Shown here piece by piece: positions 4,933 to 9,433 of a stretch of DNA of 30,859 nt. This stretch comes from a virus (taxonomy: Duplodnaviria; Heunggongvirae; Uroviricota; Caudoviricetes). Location: the IMG/VR virus record IMGVR_UViG_2740892488_000014; one strand, given 5' to 3'. Position 1 is the first letter of the stretch, and each line of letters begins with the position of its first letter. A program made the position numbers and the translations under genes. Under the pieces are notes generated by a model. It saw only the letters and a program-made list of their open reading frames with translations, did no database searches and had not been told where the DNA came from.

Positions 4933-5574
4933 ATGAAAACCTTCTATGAGGACTGGCCTGAAACTTTCGTTAGCCGGTTAGATATGTTACGGGCGTTGGA
5001 TGATCGCGGTTCGACCCGGAGGCTCTATCTTGAACGGACCGGGGCAATATTTGACGCTCTGGCAGAAGAGATACGTACAGTCGTTGCCGGGCATCCTGAA
5101 ATCGACGTGAGTGAACTTGATATCGGGCCGCTGTATCGCTATTACAAACGTGGAGAAAAGGGGAATCCGCTGGCTGACTTACTTATTGAGTTGGCTCCAC
5201 CAACTTGTGAACGGGTTCGTATATCTCCTGAAGTGTACATAATCCCGTATCTGTTTTTTGCACTGTTGATAGCGCAAGGCGCTGACAACGATGCCCGCGA
5301 TTTTTTCAATATGATGATGCGACCGTTAATCATCGCCTACCGTTTCAAACAACTGGCGCGATACCTGGGAACAAAGGGCGGAGGACGACCACAGCACAGA
5401 TTAAAAAGCGAAGCCATTGAACTGGCTGATCGTTTTTTTACTGAAAACCCGACAGCGCCATTATCGCGTGGCGTGCAATACATATCCGGTATTTTTGTGG
5501 CGAAATACTCTGACCCACCTGCAGCGTCGACGATTAGAAAATGGTTAATTCCAATTTACAGGAGTGATAAATAA
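4933..5574 (+). CDS. Hypothetical protein, 213 aa, no family recognised
   Basis: Long ORF with a good SD, GAGGT 5 nt before the ATG at 4933. The track ORF 4897..5574 uses a GTG upstream. Codon usage resembles the flanking genes. Confidence 0.7.
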   Translation: MKTFYEDWPETFVSRLDMLRALDDRGSTRRLYLERTGAIFDALAEEIRTVVAGHPEIDVSELDIGPLYRYYKRGEKGNPLADLLIELAPPTCERVRISPEVYIIPYLFFALLIAQGADNDARDFFNMMMRPLIIAYRFKQLARYLGTKGGGRPQHRLKSEAIELADRFFTENPTAPLSRGVQYISGIFVAKYSDPPAASTIRKWLIPIYRSDK

Positions 5575-5581
5575 TGACCAT

Positions 5582-5610
5582 AAACGGTTTAATCCCCTAT
5601 AAAACCGTTT
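5582..5610 (+). terminator. Inverted repeat AAACGGTTT-N11-AAACCGTTT 8 nt after the stop of the 4933..5574 gene; weak terminator or binding site
   Basis: 9-bp arms read from the sequence, followed by AATAAAATT. Confidence 0.35.
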
Positions 5611-5667
5611 AATAAAATTCACGACGTGAATATAATTGTTCATTATTCCCTCATTGTATTTGGCGTT

Positions 5668-5699
5668 ATGACAAATGCCATAAAATACTGTATAAATAT
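5668..5699 (+). promoter_or_regulatory. Rightward sigma70-like promoter (-35 ATGACA, 17-nt spacer, -10 TATAAA) overlapping the left half of a LexA box that is split by the ISL3 insertion
   Basis: Joining 5699 to 7593 reconstitutes TACTGTATAAATATACAGGT, i.e. CTGT-N8-ACAG with the TA-rich centre of the E. coli SOS-box consensus TACTGTATATATATACAGTA. The -10 overlaps the box. Confidence 0.6.
5692..5699. repeat. Target-site duplication ATAAATAT, left copy
   Basis: An identical 8-mer directly flanks both ends of the ISL3 element. ISL3-family elements make 8-bp TSDs. Confidence 0.8.
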
Positions 5700-5727
5700 G
5701 GGTCTTCCCCGATCATGGTGGGAAGAC

Positions 5728-6948
5728 TCAGTACGCCATATTCAGTTTCCCATAGTGGAACATAACTCCCAGTTTAAAGCGTTCCCGGTTTCGGTATCCC
5801 CTGGCCTTTATCCTCAGCAGTCTGATCTTGCTGTTCAGCGCCTCCGCATTTCCATTCGAGACGCGATGACGCATTGCATTCAGTATTCCGTATAACCGTT
5901 TTTTAATGGTTTTCGCTGCGTTTTTCATCATCGGCACATCACATTCAGACGCCAGCGATATCCACTGCAACCAGTCATTCCTGCGTTCTGTGCTCCAGGG
6001 GCGATCCCAGATATTTTTTGCCAGCTCTTTCAGTGTCCAGCACTGGCTTGTCTGTTGCATCTGTTCCCGCAACCACATCAGCTTTTCCTGCCGGGACTCA
6101 GTCATCCATTTGTCGCTGTACTGCCACAGGAAGCGGGTACCTTTGGCCTGACGACGACTTTCAACAGGGAGGTGCGGATGTTCATTCTGGCGGGTTTTAT
6201 CAACCACTTCGCCCAGTTGCTTCGCCACATGGAAGCGATCGAAGGCGATTTTCTCGACCGCATTGGGTAAATGGATACGCGCTGCTCTTATATAGCCCGC
6301 ATTCATGTCCATCGACAGTGTTTTGATGGCCAACAACTGACTGTCAGTAAGCGAACGGAGATAGCTGGCAAGACTCTCTGTGCCACGATCATCGGTTAAT
6401 GCCAGTGCCCGCCCGTCGCGATCAGATACCACGGTTATATACCTATGCCCTTTTTTAAAGGCGACTTCGTCTACATTCATATGACGCACTGATAAAGGCT
6501 TTTTAATCCGCGACAGGCCTCGCTTAACCGCGCGGGTCATGATGCCGTCAACGGCATTCCAGCTAAGTTTAAGTTGTTTTCTGACCGCATCAACGGTGCT
6601 GATTTTAAGCCATGAGAGCACGAACGATTCGAACAGCAGAGTGTACCGACTGCCGGAACCTGCCCACGGTACAGGCAGAGTCTGGCAGCCATGCTCCGGG
6701 CACATAACGCGGGGAACATCGGCTTCTACTAATGTCATGAACTGGCAGGTATCAAGGTGGCGCCATTTACGATGTCGGTGATCGTGAACAGAACAGGATT
6801 TCCTGCAGGTCGGACAGGTTAACTGAGTATTTTCAGCAATTCCGACTGTAACAGTAACGGAACCTGCATTTTCATCGAGGGTAAGGGATTTAACCTGCCA
6901 TGGTGCAGTCAGGTTAAGGATATGGGCATAGAGGGATTTTTCGTCCAT
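5728..6948 (-). CDS. ISL3-family transposase, 406 aa
   Basis: N-terminal Zn-ribbon (CPTCRKSC...CPEHGC) plus DDE domain, typical of the IS204/IS1001/IS1096/IS1165 (ISL3) family. Confidence 0.95.
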   Translation of the reverse strand: MDEKSLYAHILNLTAPWQVKSLTLDENAGSVTVTVGIAENTQLTCPTCRKSCSVHDHRHRKWRHLDTCQFMTLVEADVPRVMCPEHGCQTLPVPWAGSGSRYTLLFESFVLSWLKISTVDAVRKQLKLSWNAVDGIMTRAVKRGLSRIKKPLSVRHMNVDEVAFKKGHRYITVVSDRDGRALALTDDRGTESLASYLRSLTDSQLLAIKTLSMDMNAGYIRAARIHLPNAVEKIAFDRFHVAKQLGEVVDKTRQNEHPHLPVESRRQAKGTRFLWQYSDKWMTESRQEKLMWLREQMQQTSQCWTLKELAKNIWDRPWSTERRNDWLQWISLASECDVPMMKNAAKTIKKRLYGILNAMRHRVSNGNAEALNSKIRLLRIKARGYRNRERFKLGVMFHYGKLNMAY

Positions 6949-6966
6949 ATAATTTCATTCTGAAGC

Positions 6967-7485
6967 TTACTTTAAACTGATATTATTATTTTTTGCCCAC
7001 TTTCTTAATCTTCCATTAGCGTTGGCGTAAGGCGAAGATGTGTTAAATGAGATCATTCTCCCCATCGTCCATTTTGTGTACCATGGTCTTCCATACAAAA
7101 TATCATCGGTACGATCATTAATAAGGTTCACAATCTCATTTTTTACAGTCTGAAGTTCAGCTACTAACAACTCATAACTTAACTCACTGTAATCTGAGTA
7201 AAATTTTTGAGCAAGAAGGCCAAGCTGATTCCATTTATAGCCAGTTTCCGGAAAATCGACAGGCAGACCTTTAGCATCAGAAGCGATCCACTTTACAACA
7301 AGAGCATTCCATCCAAGCAGATACGAAACGAGATCACGAACACTCATCTCCGTTCCTTTGGCGTGTCCGTCCATTGATTTATCTGAAGTAATTTCTGGTG
7401 GGATTGTGTTGAGGTAACTAATTAATTTACTAAAATTTTTATCAATAGCTAAAAGCAGTTCAGCTTTTGTTTGCGGCACACTCAT
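6967..7485 (-). CDS. ClbS/DfsB-family (DUF1706) four-helix-bundle protein, 172 aa, carried as passenger of the ISL3 element
   Basis: Length and motifs such as ...KAELLLAIDKNFSKL..., ...DFPETGYKWNQLG... and ...YGRPWYTKWTMGRMI... recall the ClbS colibactin self-resistance family (from memory). It has its own SD GAGGG. Confidence 0.55.
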   Translation of the reverse strand: MSVPQTKAELLLAIDKNFSKLISYLNTIPPEITSDKSMDGHAKGTEMSVRDLVSYLLGWNALVVKWIASDAKGLPVDFPETGYKWNQLGLLAQKFYSDYSELSYELLVAELQTVKNEIVNLINDRTDDILYGRPWYTKWTMGRMISFNTSSPYANANGRLRKWAKNNNISLK

Positions 7486-7584
7486 AAGAATTCCCTCTCA
7501 TGTAAAAAGAGACACCATAAAGGTACTGTGTGGTGTTTGAAAATCGCTCAATTATGTACCACCCACCACAACAGGGGAAGACCC

Positions 7585-7598
7585 ATAAATATACAGGT
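7585..7598 (+). promoter_or_regulatory. Right TSD copy ATAAATAT plus right half ACAGGT of the split LexA box
   Basis: See the reconstruction under the promoter feature at 5668..5699. Confidence 0.6.
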
Positions 7599-7618
7599 TG
7601 TGGCATTGGGGGGAAGAC

Positions 7619-7798
7619 ATGAATATTCAAGAATCTATAGGCGAACTACCGGAAACATGCCGGGCTGTTATCAAGCGTAAGGACGGACACATCGTTGGTG
7701 TGCGTGTTCTGACCGATGATGAGCGGATTGCCAGCCTGATGGCGTTTCTCGAGTTGGCAGAAATAGCTGGATATACTATTACACCCCCTGACGCGTAA
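7619..7798 (+). CDS. Small protein (59 aa) of unknown function, first gene downstream of the disrupted LexA-controlled promoter
   Basis: ATG at 7619 with a purine-rich SD GGGGGGAAGAC. The track ORF 7598..7798 uses an upstream TTG. No family recognised. Confidence 0.55.
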   Translation: MNIQESIGELPETCRAVIKRKDGHIVGVRVLTDDERIASLMAFLELAEIAGYTITPPDA

Positions 7799-7875
7799 AA
7801 CACGGTATAATATCGGTGCTGGATTGAACACCCGGCATCATTTTCTGAACACTGCCGCGCCACCTGGAGTTAACC

Positions 7876-8472
7876 ATGGCGCAGCATTCATTTATCAGGG
7901 TATCCGGCGGTTCGCTAATACCCGCGACACCAGACACGCAACGCTGGTTGACTGAACGAGTCAAACCAGGTGCTGTTGTGTATGCAGATTTCAAACAGGC
8001 GCGTAATCCCGCGTTTCATCGTAAATTTTTCTCACTTCTCAACCTGGGCTTTGATTACTGGCATCCGTCCGGAGGGGCTATTTCTCCTGCGGAGCGCGAA
8101 CTGGTTCACGGCTACGTTAAGTTACTGGCGTATTACGGTGGACACGGTGATGTCATGGCAGAGCTGGCTGATCAGTATCTTCTCGATGAGTCGGAAAAGC
8201 GCGCGGGGAGTATCAGTGCGGTGAAGTCGTTCGAGGCGTTTCGCGCATGGGCGATTATGGAAGCTGGGTTTTATGACGTTCATCAGATGCCAGACGGCAG
8301 TTTGATGCGCGTACCTCGTTCAATCTCGTTTGCAGCGATGGACGATCTTGAGTTCGGTCAACTGTATTCAGCCGTTTTAGATGTGCTGTGGAATTATATT
8401 TTGTTCCGCACATTTGCCTCTCAGGAGGCCGCTGAAAATGCCGCCGCGCAGCTGCTGGATTACACATCATGA
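7876..8472 (+). CDS. Phage nin-region protein, NinB-like/DUF1367-type, 198 aa
   Basis: N-terminal pattern ...VVYADFKQARNPAFHRKFFSLLNLG... resembles lambda NinB ...VVTIQERNRSLDQNRKLWACLGDVS.... It sits immediately upstream of a YbcO-like gene and Q. Confidence 0.5.
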   Translation: MAQHSFIRVSGGSLIPATPDTQRWLTERVKPGAVVYADFKQARNPAFHRKFFSLLNLGFDYWHPSGGAISPAERELVHGYVKLLAYYGGHGDVMAELADQYLLDESEKRAGSISAVKSFEAFRAWAIMEAGFYDVHQMPDGSLMRVPRSISFAAMDDLEFGQLYSAVLDVLWNYILFRTFASQEAAENAAAQLLDYTS

Positions 8473-8762
8473 AAAAAATCGACCTGAGAAAAGCTGCACG
8501 CAGTCGCGCTTGTACTGTGCGTATCCCCGGTGTGTGCAATCACAATCCTGAAACCAGCGTACTGGCTCATTATCGTCTCGCCGGAACGTGCGGCACAGCC
8601 ATCAAACCTCACGATATGCAGGGCGCTATCGCCTGCAGTGCGTGTCACGATGCCATCGACGGACGTACAAAAACGGATTACGAGCACGACTCATTGTTGT
8701 TGATGCACGCTGAGGGAGTTTTCAGAACACTGGCTATCTGGCGCGATGAGGAGTTTATCTGA
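8469..8762 (+). CDS. ybcO: YbcO-like (DUF1364) putative phage nuclease, 97 aa
   Basis: DLRKAAR..C.VRIPGVCN.NPETSVLAH.RL.G.CGT..KP.D..A.IACSACHD.ID.RT is collinear with E. coli DLP12 YbcO. Its ATGA overlaps the upstream gene. Confidence 0.8.
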   Translation: MKKIDLRKAARSRACTVRIPGVCNHNPETSVLAHYRLAGTCGTAIKPHDMQGAIACSACHDAIDGRTKTDYEHDSLLLMHAEGVFRTLAIWRDEEFI

Positions 8763-9433
8763 TGAGTAACGAGTATTTATTGGAATATACCCGCATAAAA
8801 CTGCGCGCTGCATTGCGGGATTTGTCTGGTGGTTCTAAGGGGCAACTGGAAGCATTGTGTGAGCACCCACCGGCAGACAAAAACGCATACCCACGCAAAC
8901 ATATTCACCGTGTGCAGCTGGAGGACCGGACCGTTGATGCTCTGGTTACGCCAGTTTACGCTCTGGAAAGTTTCAGCAGACGTCGCCCCGCGCCGCCGAT
9001 GAGTGATTTTGAATTTGCTGATTCATCCTGGCGGCGTTCTGTGAACTCGCTGGATGCAAGTCAGCAAGCGTGGTTGCGTTATTGCTACGGTGGTAACCTG
9101 GCATTCAAACACCAAACAGCTATTTGTGAGGCTGTCTGGAGTCGCTATAAAGGAAACATCCCCGCGTCAACTCAGAGAAAAGTAGTTAAGCGCCTGCTTT
9201 CGTTGGTGTGGTTGTCCGTGCAGGCGGTCGCAGCAGCAAATAAACGCGAGGATTTTAAGGAGATGGCCGGATCTACCCTAGCAGGAATGCTGTCGGTTTC
9301 TCGTTCCACCTGGTGCGAAACATACTCCCTGCACTGGGTAGGAATGAAAGAGGCGGTGAGAGCACTTGATGAAGTGGCACTTCTTGCAACTTTGCATCAT
9401 TATCAGAACCATTTAGACGACGTTTGCGTATAA
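8762..9433 (+). CDS. Phage late-gene antitermination protein Q (Phage_antitermQ family), 223 aa
   Basis: Size, position (last nin-region gene before the lysis genes) and sequence features of the antiterminator-Q family, with a PR'/tR'-like promoter region downstream. Confidence 0.8.
   Translation: MSNEYLLEYTRIKLRAALRDLSGGSKGQLEALCEHPPADKNAYPRKHIHRVQLEDRTVDALVTPVYALESFSRRRPAPPMSDFEFADSSWRRSVNSLDASQQAWLRYCYGGNLAFKHQTAICEAVWSRYKGNIPASTQRKVVKRLLSLVWLSVQAVAAANKREDFKEMAGSTLAGMLSVSRSTWCETYSLHWVGMKEAVRALDEVALLATLHHYQNHLDDVCV

Follow-up and report, generated by a model that had tools for sequence, protein, structure and literature searches.

An ISL3-family insertion sequence carrying a clbS-like passenger gene at a LexA box in an Escherichia coli prophage

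A complete two-gene ISL3-family element

The stretch of DNA analyzed here (the window, 30,859 nucleotides, IMG/VR record IMGVR_UViG_2740892488_000014, Caudoviricetes) contains a complete insertion sequence (IS) of the ISL3 family that spans positions 5700-7584 and is 1,885 bp long. Its ends are imperfect terminal inverted repeats, the right repeat (IRR, 5700-5722, GGGTCTTCCCCGATCATGGTGGG) lying far from the passenger gene and the left repeat (IRL, 7562-7584, reverse complement GGGTCTTCCCCTGTTGTGGTGGG) lying beside it; the two are identical at 19 of 23 positions and each opens with GGGTCTTCCCC. Both genes of the element are on the minus strand. The passenger gene (7485 to 6967) encodes a 172-aa protein, WP_000115885, of the clbS-like family PF08020 (DUF1706/ClbS-DfsB), and is separated by an 18-bp spacer from the transposase gene (6948 to 5728), which encodes a 406-aa protein. 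In the transposase, Zn-ribbon and helix-turn-helix (HTH) domains precede the catalytic domain, with Pfam matches to DDE_Tnp_ISL3 (PF01610, E value 1.3e-58), HTH_Tnp_ISL3 and Zn_ribbon_ISL3 (PF13542, 2.9e-12; PF14690, 3.3e-10) that were all above the gathering score. The leader of the passenger gene (7486-7561, minus strand) includes a Shine-Dalgarno sequence, GAGAGGGAA, at 7491-7499, 6 nt 5' of the ATG. A first-pass annotation made from the sequence alone had placed an ISL3-family IS at exactly these coordinates, with a ClbS/DfsB-like passenger that has its own Shine-Dalgarno sequence and lies, co-oriented, between the left inverted repeat and the transposase gene. All of this held on closer analysis, as DUF1706 homology was present over the full length of the protein and the gene lies inside the inverted repeats.

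The IS is flanked on both sides by a perfect 8-bp direct repeat, ATAAATAT (5692-5699 and 7585-7592), which is present as a single copy in the empty site. For the empty-site query, the two flanks were joined with one copy of the repeat and searched in complete E. coli genomes. The site was uninterrupted at about 100% identity in 419 genomes, including the sequence type 131 (ST131) strains EC958 and JJ1886, which establishes the exact boundaries of the IS and places the passenger gene within the mobile unit. The search returned 474 matching records with 499 places in total, so that at most about 25 genomes have a split site, and the IS-containing arrangement of the window was also present in S65EC and AVS0947. 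The insertion in the window is therefore recent and polymorphic, and the passenger gene is part of what moved.

Copies in the fimB gene of ST131 strains, annotated as ISEc53, showed 100% nucleotide identity to the window element across all 1,885 bp, and copies on pUTI89-type plasmids were 99.9% identical. By this sequence identity, we assign the window element to ISEc53, taking the name from the annotated copies and from a later preprint that calls the fimB-interrupting element ISEc53. The two-gene element with a clbS-like passenger was already known, and its detection here is a rediscovery. The fimB insertion of EC958, to which that of Nissle 1917 is almost identical, was reported by Totsika et al. 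(2011) to be one unit bounded by imperfect 23-bp inverted repeats, with two coding sequences, an ISL3-like transposase and a conserved hypothetical protein. On pUTI89, a transposase, a ClbS/DfsB protein, and a DinI-like protein have been reported to co-occur. A preprint of November 2025 (bioRxiv 10.1101/2025.11.17.686825) described clbS-like genes beside a single ISL3 transposase on plasmids and on ST131 C1/C2 chromosomes, used the term "clbS-like transposon," and presented a population-genomic link to clonal expansions. The gene treated in that preprint, and in the work of Silpe et al. (2022) on orphan ClbS-like proteins of pks-negative bacteria, is very probably the passenger gene of the window. 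In the portions of these two sources that were available, IS boundaries, a comparison with ISKox3, and a LexA-box target are not given. The copies in fimB (ST131/EC958 and Nissle 1917) and on pUTI89 have the same two genes, inverted repeats, and length as the window copy. The insertion site is the sole difference, the window copy occupying a prophage LexA box that EC958 and 418 other genomes have uninterrupted.

ISEc53 was found in 657 of 5,426 complete E. coli genomes (at least 80% coverage), at up to nine places per genome, and on more than 200 plasmids, some of them from Klebsiella and Enterobacter. The unit was always 1,885 bp at its many sites, among them fimB, pUTI89, sbmC, dinD, and prophage sites. 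At 99% identity or more, the whole IS was present in 724 E. coli records and the passenger module alone (6949-7584) in 723, which makes the passenger a constant part of ISEc53. The suggestion of the first-pass annotation that the gene would move with every transposition agrees with these counts, and its proposal to look for the same passenger in other copies led to the same answer, essentially all ISEc53 copies carrying it. The clbS-like gene was broken by IS1 or IS1203, or frameshifted, in three copies (the KE54 chromosome, plasmid NZ_CP059839, and ETEC-2265). A copy with 97.6% identity was present in a proteobacterial metagenome-assembled genome (MAG), and one gut metagenome holds a copy with a 13-bp deletion.

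The closest relative considered was ISKox3, an ISL3-family IS of 1,316 bp that is common on IncX3 and IncF plasmids. It is 84.5% identical to element positions 1-1249, covering IRR and the transposase gene, has the same IRR end, and is 92% identical to the last 25 bp (IRL) of ISEc53. It also shares the 8-bp duplication and the CTGT-N8-ACAG target described below. However, ISKox3 has no passenger, and only about 43 bp separate its transposase start from IRL, compared to about 611 bp with the clbS-like gene in ISEc53. The G+C content was 37.6% for the passenger gene, 50.4% for the transposase gene, and 47.8% for the window on average, which suggests that the clbS-like gene was captured from a donor of lower G+C content. 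On sequence grounds, ISEc53 looks like an ISKox3-type backbone, composed of inverted repeats and a DDE transposase with Zn-ribbon and HTH domains, in which the roughly 43 bp between IRL and the transposase gene would have been replaced by a foreign low-G+C module of about 611 bp encoding the ClbS-like protein. Exact ISKox3 ends were also seen on short contigs assigned to three non-enterobacterial genomes (Arthrobacter, a Chloroflexota MAG, and Vagococcus), where contamination or mis-binning is likely rather than a true host range.

LexA boxes as insertion targets

In the window, the left copy of the duplication is preceded by CTGT (5688-5691) and the right copy is followed by ACAG (7593-7596). 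The reconstructed target is TACTGTATAAATATACAGGT, that is, TA-CTGT-ATAAATAT-ACAG-GT, and this sequence is intact in EC958. The consensus of the LexA box is CTG-N10-CAG (PMC2994835); the insertion splits such a box into its two half-sites, and the duplication is exactly the 8-bp spacer of CTGT-N8-ACAG. No intact CTGT-N8-ACAG is now present in the window (0.15 expected by chance), nor any other credible LexA box, so the IS took the only CTGT-N8-ACAG site in about 29 kb of prophage. The site of the pUTI89 copy has the same layout, TA-CTGT-ATATACAT-ACAG-CA, directly 5' of a dinI-like/umuDC operon. A separate explanation, in which CTGT and ACAG belong to the ends of the element, was rejected as both are present in the uninterrupted empty site.

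To survey the flanks more widely, the shared IRR end, GGGTCTTCCCCGATCATGGTGGGAAG, was searched in genome, metagenome, and viral collections and in some E. coli records. Because no flanking sequence is part of this pattern, the search was unable to bias the flanks. The sample comprised 159 ISKox3/ISEc53 copies (loci L002-L160); the E. coli set has 3,126 places and the plasmids 1,796. CTGT was found directly 5' of the duplication in 85 of 103 unique left flanks (83%, against a background of 0.48%), and ACAG directly 3' of it in 49 of 52 unique right flanks (94%, background 0.40%). Among unique complete sites with a perfect 8-bp duplication, 30 of 35 read CTGT-N8-ACAG, and the duplications of these 35 sites were 90% A+T. 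The pattern was present in each element taken alone, with CTGT in 16/22 left flanks and ACAG in 9/11 right flanks for ISEc53, and in 47/54 and 29/30, respectively, for ISKox3. The per-position majority over 32 complete sites was TACTGTATATATATACAGTA, which is the 20-mer consensus of LexA, and individual complete sites matched it at a median of 17 of 20 positions. The target motif of both elements is thus the LexA box.

Some sites retained one good half-site only, as in fimB (GTGT-ATATATAT-CCAT), in a tra-region copy of ISKox3 (CTGT-ATGCATAT-ATAT), and in sites with CTGG or ACAC variants. The fimB junction of ST131 (EC958) showed a direct repeat of only 5 bp, GTGT-ATATA / IS / ATATATAT-CCAT, in agreement with Totsika et al. 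(2011), and the complete ATATATAT was present at the left fimB flank in two gut metagenome contigs. By its appearance, the ST131 allele is an 8-bp duplication from which 3 bp of the (AT)n run were lost. At 17 loci, these two contigs among them, the left and right 8-mers differed, and each side nevertheless kept CTGT or ACAG. Such contigs stem either from chimeric assembly across the repeated IS or from recombination between IS copies located at separate LexA boxes.

How the box is found can be read in more than one way. In the mechanism that we propose, the transposase would move the whole 1,885-bp unit to the γ-proteobacterial LexA operator, CTGT-N8-ACAG, where staggered cuts would duplicate the 8-bp spacer and split the operator. 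The use of sites with a single half-site makes direct reading of the palindrome by a transposase dimer appear the likelier mode, ahead of recruitment or gating by LexA. LexA could instead govern targeting, either by recruiting the transpososome when bound or, in the opposite sense, by occluding the site so that insertion needs LexA cleavage during the SOS response. Such a part for LexA is possible though rather unlikely: the target logo does equal the full 20-bp LexA consensus, with the flanking TA and the alternating AT spacer, and many sites are directly beside SOS-type genes such as sbmC, dinD, and umuD-like genes. However, the single half-sites in fimB, in the tra region, and in the ACAC and CTGG variants should bind LexA dimers poorly, and the cuts are symmetric to the base, as expected of a dimeric transposase on a palindrome. 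We give very little credence to a third account, in which random insertion is followed by selection. Intergenic operator insertions would be less harmful than insertions in genes, but selection explains neither the base-exact register, with the duplication always the 8-bp spacer, nor the use of the single CTGT-N8-ACAG present in about 29 kb of prophage, and it leaves unexplained the copy within the coding sequence of fimB, located at a box-like (AT)4 site.

A comparable preference is known from IS1397 and ISKpn1, IS3-family elements that insert into the palindromes of repetitive extragenic palindromic (REP) sequences and bacterial interspersed mosaic elements (BIMEs). They are alike in reading a short, recurrent, palindromic host motif with a fixed insertion position, and differ in belonging to the IS3 rather than the ISL3 family and in using a motif other than the LexA operator. 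In the literature searched, which did not extend to ISfinder, there was no report combining ISKox3 with LexA, or ISL3 with "LexA box" and "target site," and none of LexA operators serving as the target of any IS. Papers that contain both ISL3 and LexA did not appear relevant, judging by their titles and by one or two occurrences in each, and the two likeliest were incidental co-mentions. Published work places ISKox3 beside umuD without comment, routinely so on IncX3 NDM plasmids. The LexA-operator specificity of ISEc53 and ISKox3 is apparently unreported.

The ClbS-like passenger protein

The profile search with PF08020 aligned residues 1-165 of the passenger protein to positions 1-166 of the 166-position profile (E value 3e-54, 183.9 bits, cut-off 24.2). 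The protein is labeled "four-helix bundle protein" in RefSeq, and its sequence is identical to a solved structure, PDB chain 5COF_A, deposited as "uncharacterized protein." The second-best PDB match was ClbS of the pks island (6ANR, E value 1e-55), a member of the same Pfam family, with 89 of 166 residues identical (54%) over the full length and one 1-residue gap. The alignment is ungapped over residues 1-103 and places LVSY55LLGW of the passenger against LVSY55LIGW of ClbS, so that Tyr55 is aligned. Tyr55 is said to be the catalytic residue of ClbS. A catalytic residue of ClbS is not mentioned in Silpe et al. (2022) or in one review. Membership of the passenger in the family is settled by the identical solved structure together with a characterized enzyme of 54% identity. 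The DfsB/sibling lethal factor family (PDB 5CIV, 5COG, and 5COM), for which a role as a secreted killing factor has been proposed, shares DUF1706 with the passenger and is far more remote, the matches to 5CIV ("sibling bacteriocin"), yeast IRC4, and a CTn5 protein having E values of 1e-18 to 1e-20. Unlike ClbS, the window gene is an orphan outside the pks cluster, IS-borne and of low G+C content, and ClbS activity is predicted here. No clb genes were found in the window, and the passenger sits in an IS within a prophage, whereas clbS is the final gene of the pks (clb) island; we therefore name the protein ClbS-like and not ClbS.

Silpe et al. (2022) list WP_000115885 in their table of ClbS homologs with 53.6% identity to ClbS. 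All twelve ClbS and ClbS-like proteins assayed in that study, with 25 to 80% identity, gave protection against colibactin, and the test set included a 172-aa "DfsB family" protein of E. coli ("E. coli 69"), QDM73539. On the basis of the similarity to ClbS and this uniform protection among tested homologs, the passenger is probably a cytoplasmic colibactin-cyclopropane hydrolase that protects pks-negative hosts. It would open the cyclopropane warhead of colibactin and allow a pks-negative host to resist competing pks+ bacteria, and a mobile colibactin or genotoxin resistance role for this exact protein is plausible.

Two other functions were weighed against this one. The passenger could be a DUF1706/DinB-fold protein that has no part in colibactin resistance, such as the precursor of a secreted "sibling lethal factor" of the DfsB type, or a hydrolase or binding protein that deals with another electrophile or stress. 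The Paenibacillus "sibling bacteriocin" (5CIV), yeast IRC4, and a protein of a conjugative transposon belong to the Pfam family as well, the low G+C content suggests a foreign source with no relation to the pks island, no direct assay of the passenger protein was found, and the 2025 preprint likewise raises a non-colibactin role. However, the passenger is much nearer to ClbS, along its full length and with Tyr55 aligned, than to any DfsB-type entry, and every ClbS-like protein assayed by Silpe et al. (2022), even at 27% identity, was protective, which leaves this alternative improbable. It is far less probable still that the 172-aa protein is an accessory factor for transposition or target selection and not cargo. 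Its gene has a co-transcriptional position 5' of the transposase gene, and virtually every ISEc53 copy carries it, but ISKox3 is mobile without it, with the same duplication length and target; the enzyme family has no role in DNA transposition; and ISEc53 copies with a passenger broken by IS1 or frameshifted still exist.

Taken together, positions 5700-7584 are very likely best explained as a complete, evidently active ISEc53 that carries clbS-like cargo and targets the LexA operator. Several observations weigh against this explanation or parts of it. A minority of sites have one good half-site, and the specificity is thus strong and not absolute. The cargo is not always maintained, as the disrupted and frameshifted copies show. 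A promoter scan of 5500-7900 gave no minus-strand match upstream of the passenger gene and fewer matches in total than the shuffle mean; no above-chance promoter for the passenger was therefore found in this interval, and its expression is predicted. DUF1706 also holds proteins with another proposed role, such as the DfsB "sibling bacteriocin" 5CIV. No published experiment on the exact passenger protein was found, and QDM73539, which may or may not match the ISEc53 protein closely, was absent from the 15 listed of 362 cluster members. The 2025 preprint (bioRxiv 10.1101/2025.11.17.686825) itself still calls for experimental work.

Genes beside the insertion sites and the interrupted prophage

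Many insertion sites adjoin genes of the SOS response. The gene next to the site is sbmC in strains M16807 and Seattle 1946, dinD in strain M1/5, and dinI-like/umuDC genes on plasmids, and open reading frames for UmuD-like (Peptidase_S24), DinI, GyrI-like, DinD-like (Bro-N), and DinB-like (IMS) proteins are frequent neighbors. The genes dinD, sbmC, and umuD-like genes are established members of the SOS regulon. Both orientations of the IS relative to the SOS gene occur.

In the window, the IS appears to have landed in the sole LexA box of a lambdoid prophage of ST131-type E. coli. The interrupted box was directly upstream of a phage gene of the phrog_340 family (7619-7798, plus strand, 59 aa, function unknown), which begins a block at 7619-9433 that continues with DUF1367, YbcO, and antiterminator Q genes; the prophage also has an ImmA/IrrE (Peptidase_M78) gene. 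A candidate σ70 promoter that predates the insertion can be read from the sequence at 5668-5696 on the plus strand (ATGACA, 17 nt, TATAAA), with its -10 element inside the LexA box, although the consensus promoter scan did not list it. From the sequence match of the box to the LexA consensus, we infer that it was a LexA-bound operator controlling the downstream gene; other sites hit are located directly 5' of dinD, sbmC, and umuD-like genes. A more speculative suggestion is that the phrog_340 gene encodes an SOS-controlled anti-repressor or early switch.

The insertion would destroy this operator. In the window orientation, the candidate promoter on the left side faces the interior of the IS and is antisense to both of its genes, and the phrog_340, DUF1367, YbcO, and Q genes now lie 1.9 kb from it, which might uncouple them from the SOS response. 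If the Q-containing block has been cut off from a LexA-controlled promoter in this way, SOS induction of the prophage could be blunted. In the opposite orientation, seen at sbmC and dinD, transcription from the orphaned SOS promoter would instead enter the clbS-like gene and the transposase gene. A search within the IS for a LexA-like box, which could place the passenger itself under SOS control, found none.

ISEc53 is already recognized as the fimB-disrupting IS of the pandemic ST131 lineage, and a role of its clbS-like cargo as a mobile determinant of colibactin resistance, tied to clonal expansions, has been proposed previously. The wider interpretation, which we regard as evenly balanced, is that ISEc53 and ISKox3 form an ISL3 clade that is site-specific for LexA operators, with each insertion rewiring an SOS promoter, possibly gated by LexA cleavage, and coupled in ISEc53 to a probable colibactin-neutralizing cargo; in the window, the insertion may blunt SOS induction of the prophage. 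Colibactin is a DNA-damaging toxin that triggers the SOS response and prophage induction. If this interpretation is correct, each insertion, whether in a chromosome, a plasmid, or a prophage, would rewire a promoter under SOS control, and the clade would act on the SOS regulon as a natural rewiring agent with sequence specificity, with targets that include translesion-polymerase operons on resistance plasmids, chromosomal SOS genes, and prophage switches. LexA targeting would also explain the location of very common elements, predict future insertion sites, and offer a tractable system for studying the way in which a DDE transposase recognizes, or is directed to, the binding site of a repressor.

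Finally, small phage proteins of unknown function recur beside the sites, belonging to phrog_3893 and phrog_450 as well as to phrog_340 in the window. Genes of the phrog_3893 family (79 aa, N-terminus MPRxxDI) and the phrog_450 family (N-terminus MPERYRYP) lie directly 3' of LexA boxes hit by ISKox3, seven viral contigs being among those that carry them. Both families are probably SOS-controlled phage genes.

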